Shown here one piece after another: positions 37,996 to 43,660 of a DNA stretch of 64,000 nt. Origin of the DNA: Escherichia coli (lineage in GTDB: Bacteria > Pseudomonadota > Gammaproteobacteria > Enterobacterales > Enterobacteriaceae). The stretch is from NCBI RefSeq assembly GCF_050320075.1, contig NZ_CP190018.1. One strand, written 5' to 3'. Positions within the stretch are counted from its first letter, which is position 1, and each line of letters opens with the position of its first letter. The notes below the pieces were generated by a model, which had not been told where the DNA came from, made no database searches, and worked only from the letters and a program-made list of their open reading frames with translations. A program made the translations under genes and the position numbers.

Positions 37996-40248
37996 TTACA
38001 AATAGAGATAGTTCGGCGGTTCTCCAGTTTTCCCTAAAAGAAGAGCGCTACGCCCAGGAATATTGATATTTAGAGTTCCGCCTCTAAGCGTAAATGCTTT
38101 ACCAGGGGGGATAATTTTTCGGGTATTATTAATAATAATGTTAACGCTATTACTCCCCATGTTTTTATATATTCCAGGTTGCAATTTGTTAGGCCAGGTA
38201 CCTTCAACTTCTTCGTTTCCTTTATTTATTATAACTAGTCCATCATGAGGAGAGTGATTAATGTTCACAGAATCCCCACGACTAAAGGCCAGAACGTTTT
38301 TAGTTGCAAATACACCCTCAAATGCGCTCCATATTCCTGCTTTATCTATATATAATGCGTGGAATTCATTGTAGAGCTGCTGATAGGTAGAGCAACCTTT
38401 ATTAAGCCACGCCTCACCGCCGACACGAGTAGACCCATCATCATTTTTAATCTCAGTCGTTGATTTTAATACCTGACCATCCCAGTAAACTAAAGGCCTG
38501 CTGAACGGGAGAGCGGCCATATATGCCATTGCTAATTGTTCATCTTGCTGATGGTTAAATAAAAAGTCATTGAAAAGATTACCATTGTTAGGGAAATCGT
38601 GGTTGATGTTAATCAATATCCGTCTTTCTGATGGGATGCTTGAGATTGTGGAGCCCGGTTTTGATGCAAGGGCCTGGAGATCTCCACCGAATGAAAAGGC
38701 TTTTATCGTCTTCATGAGCAATGAAAAATCAATGGCGCTTAAATCATCTCTTTCATAAAGCAGCGATGACATTTGTTGTTCATCTAACGGACAAGTTACC
38801 AGGTATTCCATGTAATTCATAACAGCTTTTTTTTGATATTTTGGATTAAATAAATTTGTATTGTGCAACCGCTCATTATAATTTTTAAGCGGTGGGGTTA
38901 TCGACCTCTCTATTTGTTCATGTTTTGAGTGTTTTGCTGCATCATAACGTAAACCTCGTACGCCATATTTTCGCATTTCACGAACGTATTGATTTTGCAA
39001 CATAATAACCTGGTCACTTTTGGGTGTTGTTTTAGGCATTCCATTTAAACGCTTTTCTTTTAATGCATGGAGGTTTTCCCATTCATCCTTAGAAATATTA
39101 TCTTTACTTGCTTCGAAGTCTTTTGCAGTGAGATGTATATCTTCTGGATGGATTTGGTCACGTTCTTTTGTTACTGGATCTATAATAAAGGGAATCAAGA
39201 CTTGACCTTGCCAATAGCCAGGGATACCACTTTCTATATCTTTACTGATCTTCGCTCGTATATCGGCAGAGGGATAATCCAGATCATTTTTACCACTACC
39301 CCCGATTCCCATAAAGTTAAATGTATAATCAGGGATGATATCGATACCAAATTTTTTGGCATCTTTAACCAATGCGATAAAATCCTGCAAATCTCCCATT
39401 GGATTATGGATAGTACAAAGATCTTCGGGTTGATAAGCGTGAAACCAGTAACCTTTTTCTTCTTCGGGAGTTTCTGGTCCGTCGGCGCGGAAAGTGGTTA
39501 CGGGAGGGATTTGTATATACCCATAATGACAACGTGCAAACTCAGATATATTTTTCCTGATTTGTTGATAGGTGGCATTAAAAGCATGAAGAATCGCTTC
39601 GCCAGGTTTTTTGGGGGTGATGATTTCACATTGTGATTTCTGAACAGCAGTAAGAGATTTACGCTCAAGTGTTTGCCGTAGATGTTCTGGATTGATTAAT
39701 ATTTTAAATGTTTCTTGCTGGCCGGTAGGTGACGTTACGTTAATATTATATACATCAGCTGCCAGTTCATAGTCAGGAATGTTAATAGCATATGCAACAT
39801 ACTTATCTTTTGGGGACGGTTTGTCAGATATAATGTGAGTAAAATGTTCAGCTGGACCATACTGATGAACACCGCTGTTATCACCTCTTTCAACCATTGT
39901 ATCTCGTTGATAAACCCATGTTTTTCCTTCTCCTATCCTGTCTGGCGCTGTAATGCTACGCTGTGCTGCTTTATTCAACTCTCGGTAAGTTGTATCTGGA
40001 AAAAGGGAAATTTTATAATCGTTTTTTAACAGATCATTAATAACTTTTTCTGCGTGAAAAGTTGATATAATTTCTCTGTGTTTTAAATCCTGAGGATAAA
40101 CTCCACAAGAATTAATAATATTTGTTATACAGTTTAGATATTCTAATGTATTTAATTTGGAATTTAGATCCCCGTCAGTAATGTTCCATGATAACAATGT
40201 GGGGTTGCCGATAGGTAAATTTCTTGGTCCTGGTTTTATAGAAAACAT
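37996..40248 (-). CDS. ygaQ: Alpha-amylase-family (GH13-like) protein, intact 750-aa form
   Basis: Low-GC 750-aa ORF containing GVRGLRYDAAKH (GH13 region-II-like GxRxDAAKH); located between csiD and ileY; symbol inferred from synteny only. Confidence 0.65.
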   Translation of the reverse strand: MFSIKPGPRNLPIGNPTLLSWNITDGDLNSKLNTLEYLNCITNIINSCGVYPQDLKHREIISTFHAEKVINDLLKNDYKISLFPDTTYRELNKAAQRSITAPDRIGEGKTWVYQRDTMVERGDNSGVHQYGPAEHFTHIISDKPSPKDKYVAYAINIPDYELAADVYNINVTSPTGQQETFKILINPEHLRQTLERKSLTAVQKSQCEIITPKKPGEAILHAFNATYQQIRKNISEFARCHYGYIQIPPVTTFRADGPETPEEEKGYWFHAYQPEDLCTIHNPMGDLQDFIALVKDAKKFGIDIIPDYTFNFMGIGGSGKNDLDYPSADIRAKISKDIESGIPGYWQGQVLIPFIIDPVTKERDQIHPEDIHLTAKDFEASKDNISKDEWENLHALKEKRLNGMPKTTPKSDQVIMLQNQYVREMRKYGVRGLRYDAAKHSKHEQIERSITPPLKNYNERLHNTNLFNPKYQKKAVMNYMEYLVTCPLDEQQMSSLLYERDDLSAIDFSLLMKTIKAFSFGGDLQALASKPGSTISSIPSERRILININHDFPNNGNLFNDFLFNHQQDEQLAMAYMAALPFSRPLVYWDGQVLKSTTEIKNDDGSTRVGGEAWLNKGCSTYQQLYNEFHALYIDKAGIWSAFEGVFATKNVLAFSRGDSVNINHSPHDGLVIINKGNEEVEGTWPNKLQPGIYKNMGSNSVNIIINNTRKIIPPGKAFTLRGGTLNINIPGRSALLLGKTGEPPNYLYL

Positions 40249-40807
40249 AATAAAGTTCCTCTAATGGTAGAGTAATATGGTGTATACGGAAACATAAAAA
40301 TGTTTAATTGTTGTGAAAGTAATTGCAAACAGATGTCCTACTTTTATCCAATATTTATATGGAAAAGGATAATGCTTAAATCTGTTTTTTTAATTATCGA
40401 TGTGGTCTGGAGAGGCAACTGTCAAAAATCGCTCATACGAAACTAATGATTAGCAGAATAAGATCTATGAAAGAATATATTGCTATATGAAGTTTATTTT
40501 TATGGGGTGAAAAGTAACAGATATCATAATGATGCGAAAACTCTTCAACTAATGTAATAAAGTTTTATTATTAGATACAAAATCATTACAAACTTTCATT
40601 GAATCGATGGTAACTATAAATAGTGCTAAGTATTAGCATTTGCTTGTTGACTGAGAGTATCGACTTTGTGAATGGAAGCGGTGTCGGGTTTTATGTCGCA
40701 GGTAATGACGACCCAGGATGAATGAGAACGCATAAAAATCTGTTATTTACATCATAAGATCATCATGTTTATTGCGTGGTTTATAAGTATTGTTATTGCA
40801 TACTCAA

Positions 40808-40883
40808 GGCCCTTTAGCTCAGTGGTTAGAGCAGACGACTCATAATCGTCCGGTCGCTGGTTCAAGTCCAGCAAGGGCCACCA
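40808..40883 (+). tRNA. ileY: tRNA-Ile2 (anticodon CAU, lysidine-modified)
   Basis: 76-nt GGCCCTTTAGCTCAGTGGTTAGAGCAGACGACTCATAATCGTC..GGGCCACCA; anticodon loop CUCAUAA; Ile versus Met assignment rests on similarity to ileY and synteny. Confidence 0.8.
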
Positions 40884-41639: not shown

Positions 41640-43094
41640 ATGTTAGTTAGTAAAAGCAACGAAATTAACACTAGCACATTTATAAATAGTGGAAATTGCA
41701 ATGAAAGAAAATCCTCTAAATCCATGGAGTTACTAGCTTATAGTATTATAAAATTAATTTGTAAAGAAGCTGCCTCAGGGACGTATAACGGTGCTCTTGA
41801 AATTTTACAAAAAATGATGTCTGAATGTAAATATCATGAAGGCAATGCTTTTGTCATTATGGGAGCCGGAGAACAATTAAAACGTATTAAATATGATGCT
41901 AATGAAAATAAATTAAAAGTATACAACGTACACTTTGATAATAATCAAGAGTTAGTTGCTGATGGTGAGCCTGACGTAGTATTTTAAAAAAAAACGGTGT
42001 GGGAAGACCTTCTCGTTAAACTAAAGCTGGAGAACAAAGAAAATGCGGTTTCTGAAATTAACCTGTCATCTAATAAAAATAATGTTGATCAGTTTATTGA
42101 ATGCGCTAAGAGAAATGAACAGACCCTATTCGGCAATATAAGAAAAAGTGATTTTCATGTTGCTTCACTTCAGCCAGGTAGAACGCGTAGTGTTATTTCA
42201 GAAACGCCGCCAAATGACTGTATGGAATCACATAATTTATATGAAAACCACACAGATACGGTTTCAACTGTAACTAAAAATTCTCAGCAAGTTAAAGGTC
42301 ACTATGGAGATAAGTTGAAAGAAATGCAGTTGTTCCTCAACCAGATGAGCAATGCACTTCAACAGGATTCATCTTTGTTAGAGTCAAAGGAACACACCAT
42401 AGATATTCAAGAAAAAACGAATAAGTTTGTGCAGCATTTTCAGCGGGTATTATTTGATAAAAATGGAAGGTCATCAGAGTTTCTACTTAATTTTTATGAG
42501 TGTTGCTATAAGTTTTTACCAAGAGCGCAGCCTCAAGATAAAATCGATAGCTATAATTCAGCACTGCAAGCTTTTTCCATCTTTTGTTCATCTACGTTGA
42601 CACATAATAATGTAGGGTTTAATTTCAAATTATTTCCAGAAGTCAAGCTGTCTGGAGGAGAGCTTGAAACGGTATTCAAATACAAAAATGGTAATTTTGT
42701 CTGGGAGATAGCCAGAATTAAAATTACTCTCCCAAAAGAAGAGGGTGGTTTATATAATTTACGTGGATTGGATTTTAAGGGATGCTTCTTTTCTGGACAG
42801 AACTTCAGTAACTATGATATTCAATATGTGAACTGGGGAACGTCATTGTTTGATCTTGATACTCCATGTATTTTTAATGCGCCTGCTTACAACAAGAGTA
42901 ATGAAAAATCATTAGAACGCGTCAGCGAAAACGGTTTAAGTGGAGTCTTGTCTGATCGTAATAAAAAAATAAAACTAATCACGGGTGTGGCACCATTCGA
43001 TGATATTTTATTTATGGATGATGACTTTGATGATAACTCCCCTGATGATGGTCCCGTTGAGAATAGTCCTGTTGTGAATAGTCCCCTTGTATGA
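41640..43094 (+). pseudogene. Low-GC ORF interrupted by a single in-frame TAA (115-aa and 365-aa parts in the same frame)
   Basis: Track ORFs 41640..41987 and 41997..43094 share a frame, separated by TAA at 41985-41987 next to an A9 homopolymer; very AT-rich; acidic Asp-rich C-terminus. Confidence 0.55.
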
Positions 43095-43399
43095 AGTTCT
43101 AAAAGTAGTTTTCAATGATAAATAAATGGCTATTTTTACGAAGAGATAATAACGTAGATTGAAACAATATGTATTATTGATTAAGTAAATGGGGTTATTC
43201 TTCACACTACATCCATTTTAGTGTCACTACCAAAGAAAAAGGGGCTACGTTTTCATGTAACCCCTTGATTTATTTGGTGGGCTAGCAGTGACTGAATTGG
43301 TGCTGTAATTGGTTGAAATATTTCATCTAATGTCTGGTTCAACTTTCCTTAGCTGCCTGAAAGTTTTTTTGATATTACCCAGCAATAACAGCGTTACGG

Positions 43400-43660
43400 T
43401 GTACCACGCCTGACTGATGAACTGCGTGCTCAGAGTTACCACTTCAGCGCATAACCGTGGCAGCAGACCCGGACTGAAAAACTGCTCAGGACATTATCGG
43501 CAGGGTACGCACTGCTAGTCTGTAAACTGAACCGACTGGGGCGCAGTATGTGGCATCTTGTCGTGCTGTTGGAGGAGCTGTGCAAACGTGGTATTAACTT
43601 TCGTGCTCTGGCCCAATCTATATTTCCCCAACAATGGGGGGACGAATGCTGTAAAAGTAA
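43400..43660 (+). pseudogene. pinH: Fragment of a serine DNA invertase (Pin/Hin/Gin-like)
   Basis: MWHLVVLLEELCKRGINFRALAQSI.. resembles the invertase segment ..MKHLISLVGELRERGINFRSLTDSI..; upstream frames show RPGLK and DWGAV pieces with stops; catalytic N-terminus and HTH missing. Confidence 0.55.

Follow-up and report, generated by a model that had tools for sequence, protein, structure and literature searches.

Does a low-GC segment that surrounds a transfer RNA (tRNA) gene owe its position to that gene, and is it simply decaying there? The question is raised by a locus in the window, a 64,000-nucleotide (nt) stretch of Escherichia coli contig NZ_CP190018.1, in which ileY, encoding tRNA-Ile2, lies in the interval between glaH (csiD) and ssrA. 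The original prediction read positions 37996-43660 as an old, horizontally acquired island undergoing decay, with ileY as a typical integration target. That interpretation is supported, with two corrections that concern the target role of ileY and the partial nature of the decay. The segment is probably an immobile remnant of horizontally acquired AT-rich DNA, approximately 10.75 kb in length, within a variable interval of the E. coli chromosome; a horizontal origin is suggested by its composition together with its patchy distribution. In order, the remnant carries ygaQ (of GH13 type, its catalytic triad intact), ileY (an additional gene for tRNA-Ile2, predicted to read AUA), the orphan gene ypjCB, the core of a dead DNA invertase, and the autotransporter gene ypjA/EhaD (Table 1). 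All mobility functions appear to have been lost, with both integrase and attachment (att) repeat absent and the invertase deprived of its catalytic and DNA-binding ends, so that the segment would now pass on by vertical descent, undergo reshuffling by homologous recombination, and wear away in separate lineages through nonsense mutations, insertion sequence (IS) insertion, and deletion.

Composition and extent of the island

In 500-nt windows, the GC (guanine plus cytosine) content is 0.29-0.43 at 37750-44250 versus 0.53-0.62 at 32000-37250, where the gab/glaH genes lie, so the predicted low GC is clearly below that of the backbone. Across 38-44 kb it is 0.34-0.40, compared with ~0.55 over gabD-glaH. 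The predicted right limit did not hold, in that low GC continues past 43660 through ypjA. AUA codons number 28 per 1000 in ygaQ and 12 per 1000 in both ypjCB and ypjA; the corresponding values for gabD, lhgO, and glaH are 0-2.4. Nearly all of 5426 complete E. coli genomes carry some sequence related to a 6.3-kb query around the locus, and E. coli YZLc1-3 matches it at 100%. On identical sequence, the RefSeq gene order is gabD, lhgO, glaH, ygaQ (labelled “alpha amylase C-terminal domain-containing protein”), tRNA-Ile, two YpjCB-family coding sequences (CDSs), a partial recombinase, a 39-amino acid (aa) open reading frame (ORF), and ypjA/EhaD.

Table 1. Features of the low-GC island, with positions in the window.
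Feature	Position	Strand	Basis or remark
Whole low-GC island, ~10.75 kb	37863..48610	.	Comparison with sister Escherichia species, whose glaH-ssrA junction is empty
ygaQ, intact 750-aa divergent GH13 alpha-amylase-family protein	37996..40248	-	ORF; Pfam, Foldseek, conserved residues, dN/dS
Non-coding conserved block, possible promoter/operator	40416..40504	.	170-255 nt upstream of ygaQ; core CAACTGTCAAAAATCGCTCAT
ileY, tRNA-Ile2, anticodon CAT	40808..40883	+	ARAGORN; Rfam tRNA, 73.7 bits; RefSeq
ypjCB (DUF5507 + DUF5508), Escherichia/Shigella-only orphan gene, disrupted	41640..43094	+	Pfam and NCBIfam NF050179 on the intact allele
Premature TAA, Leu116 to stop	41985..41987	+	TTA in strain 103
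pinH-type serine invertase fossil, core residues only	43476..43625	+	DNA-invertase residues 46-95; phrog_125
39-aa hypothetical ORF, ypjA leader region	43845..43964	+	RefSeq WP_001120794.1
ypjA/EhaD, adhesin-like autotransporter, last island gene	44029..48603	+	RefSeq on identical sequence; absent in empty-site species
Hairpin terminator at the right island edge, common to empty-site species	48612..48636	.	AAAAAGCCCACATCTGTGGGCTTT, aligned with AAAAAAGCCCGCATCAGCGGGCTTT in Escherichia sp. E1V33 (L008) and E. whittamii (L009)

The island’s edges emerge from a comparison with Escherichia sp. E1V33 and E. whittamii. In both, the sequence is homologous to the window through glaH as far as approximately 37805-37858 and again from 48613, with about 430 bp of unrelated filler between these points. 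The spacing of glaH and ssrA is roughly 500 bp, and none of the island genes is present, so that ygaQ, ileY, ypjCB, the invertase fossil, and ypjA are the extra content of the window. Following the filler in these species are the terminator and then the ssrA 3' region; in the window, the same terminator sits just past ypjA. The corrections gained are that the island includes ypjA, and that ileY, no proven target, is located within the variable segment.

The locus closely resembles ygaQ'-ileY-ypjC'/ypjB'-pinH'-ypjA of K-12, which extends from csiD/glaH to CP4-57 at ssrA: the order, orientation, flanks, invertase fossil, and small ORF before ypjA are the same, and nucleotide identity is ~94%. 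The locus offers nothing new in kind: its genes have been named in K-12, possess Pfam and NCBIfam models, are annotated in thousands of RefSeq genomes, and have been put to published use (PMC4725251, PMC7229825).

Distribution among species

In the interspecies survey, one genome per species was searched with GlaH, and the 10 kb upstream was read. Conservation as core genome would speak against an acquired island, and the segment proved not to be core: among 38 enterobacterial loci, neither ygaQ nor a tRNA-Ile gene lies beside glaH in any except that of E. albertii. Upstream of glaH, the segment is absent from Salmonella, Citrobacter, Pseudocitrobacter, Hafnia, and other genera, as well as from two sister Escherichia, E. 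whittamii and Escherichia sp. E1V33; 30 other enterobacterial loci lack it at this position. The ORFs of Salmonella and Citrobacter on that side of glaH bear no similarity to the island and are, judging by gene order, presumably a two-component pair and the tct tricarboxylate-transport genes.

In E. albertii, the order is ssrA, a few small genes, ileY, ygaQ, and glaH, with ypjCB and ypjA missing. The E. albertii YgaQ is 60% identical at the protein level, and the synonymous sites of ygaQ are saturated (proportion of synonymous differences, pS, 0.72). Between the same two species, the synonymous divergence (dS) of the flanking genes glaH, lhgO, gabD, and smpB is 0.14-0.47, which argues that the ygaQ-ileY modules diverged far earlier than did E. 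coli and E. albertii. Such a pattern is better explained by separate acquisitions, or by replacement at a hot spot of recombination, than by simple vertical descent. A hot spot at the glaH slot is supported by the different cargo found there in other Escherichia lineages. One locus encodes a 271-aa ankyrin-repeat protein with repeats resembling those of Legionella Ank effectors (L012:1526-2341), and another a 349-aa ORF without an NCBIfam match, taken from its sequence as fimbrial-adhesin-like (L011:239-1288).

A separate observation concerns the gab/glaH cluster itself. The GlaH proteins of Pseudocitrobacter (L006, L007, L013) are 96-99% identical to that of E. coli, and two of these loci align to the cluster over ~7.5 kb at 92.5% nucleotide identity (L006) and over 5.2 kb at 93.3% (L013), closer than either Citrobacter or Salmonella. 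This suggests a recent transfer of the gab/glaH cluster between genera.

ileY and the question of an integration target

ARAGORN labels ileY as a Met tRNA; the identical gene is a tRNA-Ile in RefSeq, and a scan of the region against Rfam returned tRNA only. The window allele differs from that of K-12 at positions 28, 42, 43, and 44 without loss of pairing in the anticodon stem, pair 28-42 being A-T in the window, G-C in K-12, and G-T in O157. Acceptor pairs C4-G69 and C5-G68, which we take to be TilS determinants, are present. A plausible role of ileY would be to add to the decoding of AUA codons, in which the island genes are rich. In K-12, ileY differs from ileX at only two positions; deletion is tolerated for ileY but not for ileX, even in cells that retain ileY (PMC11480407). 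A role for ileY as a weakly expressed accessory copy fits this difference in dispensability.

Could ileY have been the target at which the island, or islands, arrived? In such a scenario, an integrase-bearing element entered a pre-existing ileY and later lost both its integrase and its att repeat. The 3' ends of tRNA genes are frequent att sites, AT-rich genes do lie on both sides of ileY, as the original prediction noted, and the match between the window and strain ET220 breaks off exactly at the 3' end of ileY, where the end of a CP4-like element abuts. The 3' end of ileY, however, has a single match in the 64 kb whether its last 25 or its last 19 nt are searched for, even with up to three mismatches allowed. 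No ORF between glaH and ypjA (37764-48603) in the ORF list is an integrase, and the only integrase candidate in the window, at 59095-60282, belongs to the element at ssrA. The absence of integrase and att repeat, already noticed in the prediction, is thereby confirmed. The empty glaH-ssrA junction of E. whittamii and E1V33 lacks ileY, so the tRNA gene belongs with the inserted, or variable, DNA and is no conserved landmark of the backbone; in addition, E. albertii possesses ileY and ygaQ without the genes beyond the other side of ileY. Of the two halves of the claim, therefore, the AT-rich flanks stood and the target role found no support, and a tRNA-targeted origin is considered quite unlikely.

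Like tRNA-associated islands and CP4-type elements, the segment combines atypical composition, tRNA adjacency, strain-variable presence (including absence in relatives), and a cargo of adhesin and orphan genes. Unlike them, it has no integrase beside the tRNA and no att duplication at a far border, and the tRNA sits inside the variable segment. The neighbouring ssrA element, by contrast, has both an integrase-size ORF and a 15-nt att repeat.

The intact ygaQ gene

The prediction of an intact ygaQ was borne out, the gene having 750 codons and no internal stop, and the GxRxDAAKH-like motif is found as GLRYDAAKH at residues 432-440. Its Pfam matches, to Alpha-amylase (E 8e-4) and Alpha-amylase_C (E 2.7e-5), are both weak. 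An AlphaFold model of moderate confidence (predicted local distance difference test, pLDDT, 62; predicted template-modelling score, pTM, 0.70) contains a (beta/alpha)8 barrel and a C-terminal all-beta domain, and its top Foldseek matches are all alpha-amylases, from B. subtilis and animals (E 1e-18; target template-modelling score, TM, 0.71). In alignments with amylases of 21-26% identity, R434, D436, E481, H550, and D551 are conserved, with the region II Arg and the triad of Asp (region II), Glu (region III), and Asp (region IV) being invariant (R434, D436, E481, and D551). The GH13 histidine of region I is replaced by Phe312 (DYTFNF) in E. coli, E. albertii, and the more distant relative P0008. 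Compared with GH13 amylases of the Bacillus subtilis, animal, and Pseudoalteromonas types (PDB 1ua7, 1bag, 8orp, and 1b0i), YgaQ shares the barrel, the C-terminal beta domain, the Arg, the triad, and the region II/IV His. It differs in being 15-20% identical to them, in having an extra N-terminal region of ~215 aa and of unknown fold, and in possessing no signal peptide; a membrane segment is likewise absent. YgaQ may be an active enzyme.

Pairwise ratios of nonsynonymous to synonymous substitution (dN/dS) among E. coli ygaQ alleles are 0.07-0.20, with dS of 0.13-0.16, similar to glaH, and the ratio between E. coli and E. albertii is 0.13. The gene is evidently under purifying selection (dN/dS ~0.1) and, in this strain, probably still functional. 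In K-12, ygaQ was a pseudogene according to the prediction, and indeed it is flagged as such, with stops at codons 111, 346, and 614 (W111*, W346*, and W614*). A 2016 study of the “YgaQ nuclease” used only the 110-aa N-terminal fragment left in K-12 upstream of the first amber codon, and reported it as a nuclease (PMC4725251); given the intact gene of the window, this fragment is the N-terminus of a 750-aa GH13-like protein, and the published nuclease work is concerned accordingly. In other K-12 work, ygaQ has served as an example of an H-NS-silenced, horizontally acquired gene (PMC7229825).

The non-coding block upstream of ygaQ is 93-100% invariant in 30-nt bins across nine E. coli alleles, with one O157 substitution inside it, and is 84% identical in E. 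albertii, versus 67% for the ygaQ coding sequence. RNA structure z-scores at 40400-40510 (-0.98 and 0.02) give no signal, and the block is probably a promoter or operator.

The YgaQ family is limited to E. coli, E. albertii, and P0008, an 824-aa protein with 34% identity that is encoded on a human gut metagenome contig (L005, 1-17390) and is the only relative outside Escherichia. Its neighbours on that contig resemble a virulence island and include an InvH-like lipoprotein, a leucine-rich repeat (LRR) fragment, a FidL-like gene with an OmpR-type regulator, an EAL protein, and a giant intimin/invasin-like protein; an incomplete tRNA-Ile-like sequence, together with a tRNA-Gln, marks the start of the contig. 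As a further observation, four nonsense mutations of ygaQ are all amber, arising from TGG to TAG at codons 111, 346, and 614 in K-12 (L002) and from CAG to TAG at codon 413 in O157 (L087), a count too small for significance.

A recent stop in ypjCB

On the other side of ileY, the predicted ORF with a single in-frame stop was found as two segments in the same frame, 41640-41987 and 41997-43094, with the frame of ypjCB interrupted by TAA at codon 116. Strain 103 has TTA (Leu116) at this position, the junction T5A8 having become T4A9 in the window, and encodes an intact protein of 484 aa that scores 961 bits against NF050179 (cut-off 650) and matches DUF5507 (E 1.5e-76) and DUF5508 (E 3e-147). 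Apart from the stop, the two alleles differ by three substitutions, one non-synonymous and two synonymous. The exact 61-mer with TAA occurs in 7 of the 5426 genomes, including that of the enteroaggregative E. coli (EAEC) reference strain 042, and 507 related genomes keep TTA at this one-base difference. The stop is apparently young and rare, and the gene apparently one recently inactivated by a single T-to-A change. K-12 ypjCB, on the other hand, is broken by a stop at codon 161 and carries an in-frame deletion.

It is highly improbable that the stop is no real knock-out, whether through an assembly error, through production of two polypeptides (115 aa, and 365 aa after a restart at GTG 41997), or through read-through. 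The change does fall at a homopolymer junction, and the two halves are separate YpjCB-family CDSs in RefSeq. Nevertheless, an assembly error is unlikely because seven independently assembled complete genomes carry the identical 61-mer, and TTA is retained in the several hundred related genomes mentioned above.

Across E. coli, ypjCB alleles are unusually diverse and mosaic; their proteins share 76-100% identity, and in-frame variation gives lengths of 449-492 aa. Overall dN/dS is 0.4-1.1, with values of ~1 in the N-terminal 60 codons and at codons ~180-270 and ~0.43 in the C-terminal half. When the observed substitutions of divergent alleles were placed at random on one allele, the frame remained open in 0.04-0.14% of trials; nonetheless, alleles with 88-91% nucleotide identity do stay open (P ~0.001 under random substitution). 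As random substitutions rarely leave the frame open, selection has kept it so, and ypjCB is not an old pseudogene, though it is broken both here and in K-12.

Outside its own family, YpjCB has no relatives among 1.84 billion cluster representatives, the sole match being a low-complexity repeat protein. PHROGs includes a family that is YpjCB itself, without known function, and no match was found in 50,697 phage genomes. PADLOC returned nothing meaningful, and a literature search on YpjCB, DUF5507, DUF5508, and pinH found no relevant work. An AlphaFold model built with 20 alleles (pLDDT 42) was unusable for judging the fold. Finally, the idea of YpjCB as a pentapeptide-repeat protein of the PipB2/EspX kind, considered in connection with a possible type III effector, had no profile support; the Pfam scan contained no pentapeptide family even at E up to 10.

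Erosion, maintenance, and origin

Parts of the island are present in ~53-76% of the 5426 E. coli genomes. A match to ygaQ is found in 4101 genomes (3367 at ≥80% coverage), to the ileY block in 3135 (3093), and to ypjCB in 3067 (3012), with the whole 6.3 kb covered at ≥80% in 2858. By exact 61-mer, at least 1073 genomes carry the K-12-type W346* allele of ygaQ, and no fewer than 284 carry the O157-type Q413*. In strain TK3046, an IS3 element truncates ygaQ, and everything up to the ssrA island is gone.

Such figures might suggest a uniformly dead relic in which every gene, the intact ygaQ included, drifts neutrally, its open frame a matter of luck. Independent knock-outs of ygaQ are indeed frequent, with nonsense alleles, IS3 truncation, and deletions all represented, H-NS silences the gene in K-12 (PMC7229825), and the N-terminal and central parts of ypjCB evolve at a dN/dS near 1. 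This account is very unlikely, however, in view of the low dN/dS of ygaQ both within E. coli and against E. albertii, the catalytic residues it has kept in common with distant amylases, the divergent ypjCB alleles that remain open despite the odds under neutrality, and the lower dN/dS of the ypjCB C-terminal half. The predicted decay thus stands in part: erosion is real, as seen in the fossil invertase, the repeated ygaQ knock-outs, and the broken ypjCB of this strain and K-12, but it is not general, because selection still maintains ygaQ and ypjCB at the species level. K-12 is a poor reference for the locus, as many other strains keep both genes intact and under selection.

Several points weigh against the island being an acquired, immobile remnant of the kind proposed. 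Escherichia albertii, which we place outside both E. coli and the cryptic clades, has ygaQ and ileY beside glaH, so the empty cryptic-clade sites could be deletions; the direction of change, insertion or deletion, is not proven. No donor lineage was found, the gut-metagenome protein at 34% identity being the sole relative outside Escherichia. ET220 gives a hint that recombination can have its limit at the end of the tRNA gene. Lastly, the Phe in place of the region I histidine throughout the YgaQ clade means that an amylase-type activity is not assured.

A more adventurous reading, which is rather unlikely, is that ypjCB and perhaps ygaQ are selection-maintained, fast-diversifying, Escherichia-restricted genes with an antagonistic role, for instance as a secreted effector or antigen, and that ileY is a cargo tRNA. 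Its basis comprises the patterns of allele diversity, including a ypjCB frame that stays open despite dN/dS near 1 in its N-terminal and central segments, the lack of signal peptides in YgaQ and YpjCB, and the virulence-like neighbourhood of the one distant YgaQ relative. If it were true, ileY would travel with AUA-rich genes and support their translation, and the deep divergence of ygaQ would reflect repeated replacement at the hot spot from an unsampled donor pool. Were the orphan proteins secreted or antagonistic, the locus would gain moderate interest.

The invertase fossil and the ypjA leader

A serine-invertase fragment lacking its catalytic N-terminus had been predicted at 43400-43660; the fragment is present and the N-terminus is missing, although its true span is shorter (Table 1). 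Its 50 residues match residues 46-95 of the 193-residue DNA invertase chain of PDB 3uj3 (E 9e-10) and the PHROG DNA-invertase family phrog_125 (E 7e-13). This part of the catalytic domain of Hin/Gin/Pin DNA invertases is recognisable, with nucleotide likeness to pinE of e14; unlike those enzymes, the fossil lacks both the N-terminal region with the serine motif and the C-terminal DNA-binding helix-turn-helix, and the frames up- and downstream are broken. Four divergent alleles hold the identical truncated remnant, with stops and frameshifts in all alleles, which argues that the invertase died before the E. coli alleles split.

A search of the region for inverted repeats found no convincing inverted recombination sites near the fossil. 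The longest repeat, 40418-40448 / 41553-41583 (24 of 31 positions matched), flanks ileY and lies near the fossil, and was rejected as the boundary of an invertible segment. Its 13-nt perfect core is expected approximately once by chance in this length of AT-rich sequence, by our own estimate; the second arm is polymorphic within the core and missing in E. albertii, and all sampled genomes are collinear.

In most E. coli genomes, a paralogue (82-86% identity) of the ypjA leader at 43642-43900 precedes a different autotransporter gene, one adjacent to ymgJ; regulatory region and autotransporter would therefore have been duplicated as a unit.

Other elements in the window

A serV-argV-type cluster of tRNA genes, a tRNA-Ser followed by four tRNA-Arg(ACG), is located at 6087-6852. 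An antisense tRNA-Arg(TCG) that ARAGORN places at 6203-6274, overlapping the cluster, is probably spurious.

The element at ssrA, ~11.7 kb in length (48764-60481), carries the same 15 nt of the ssrA 3' end as a direct repeat at its two borders (48764-48778 / 60467-60481). It contains an ORF of integrase size (59095-60282, 395 aa) and one of primase size (49091-51424), both named by size alone, together with a 908-aa ORF (56350-59076) of GC 0.33-0.36. The element is P4-like and holds the position of CP4-57 in K-12, than which it is shorter.

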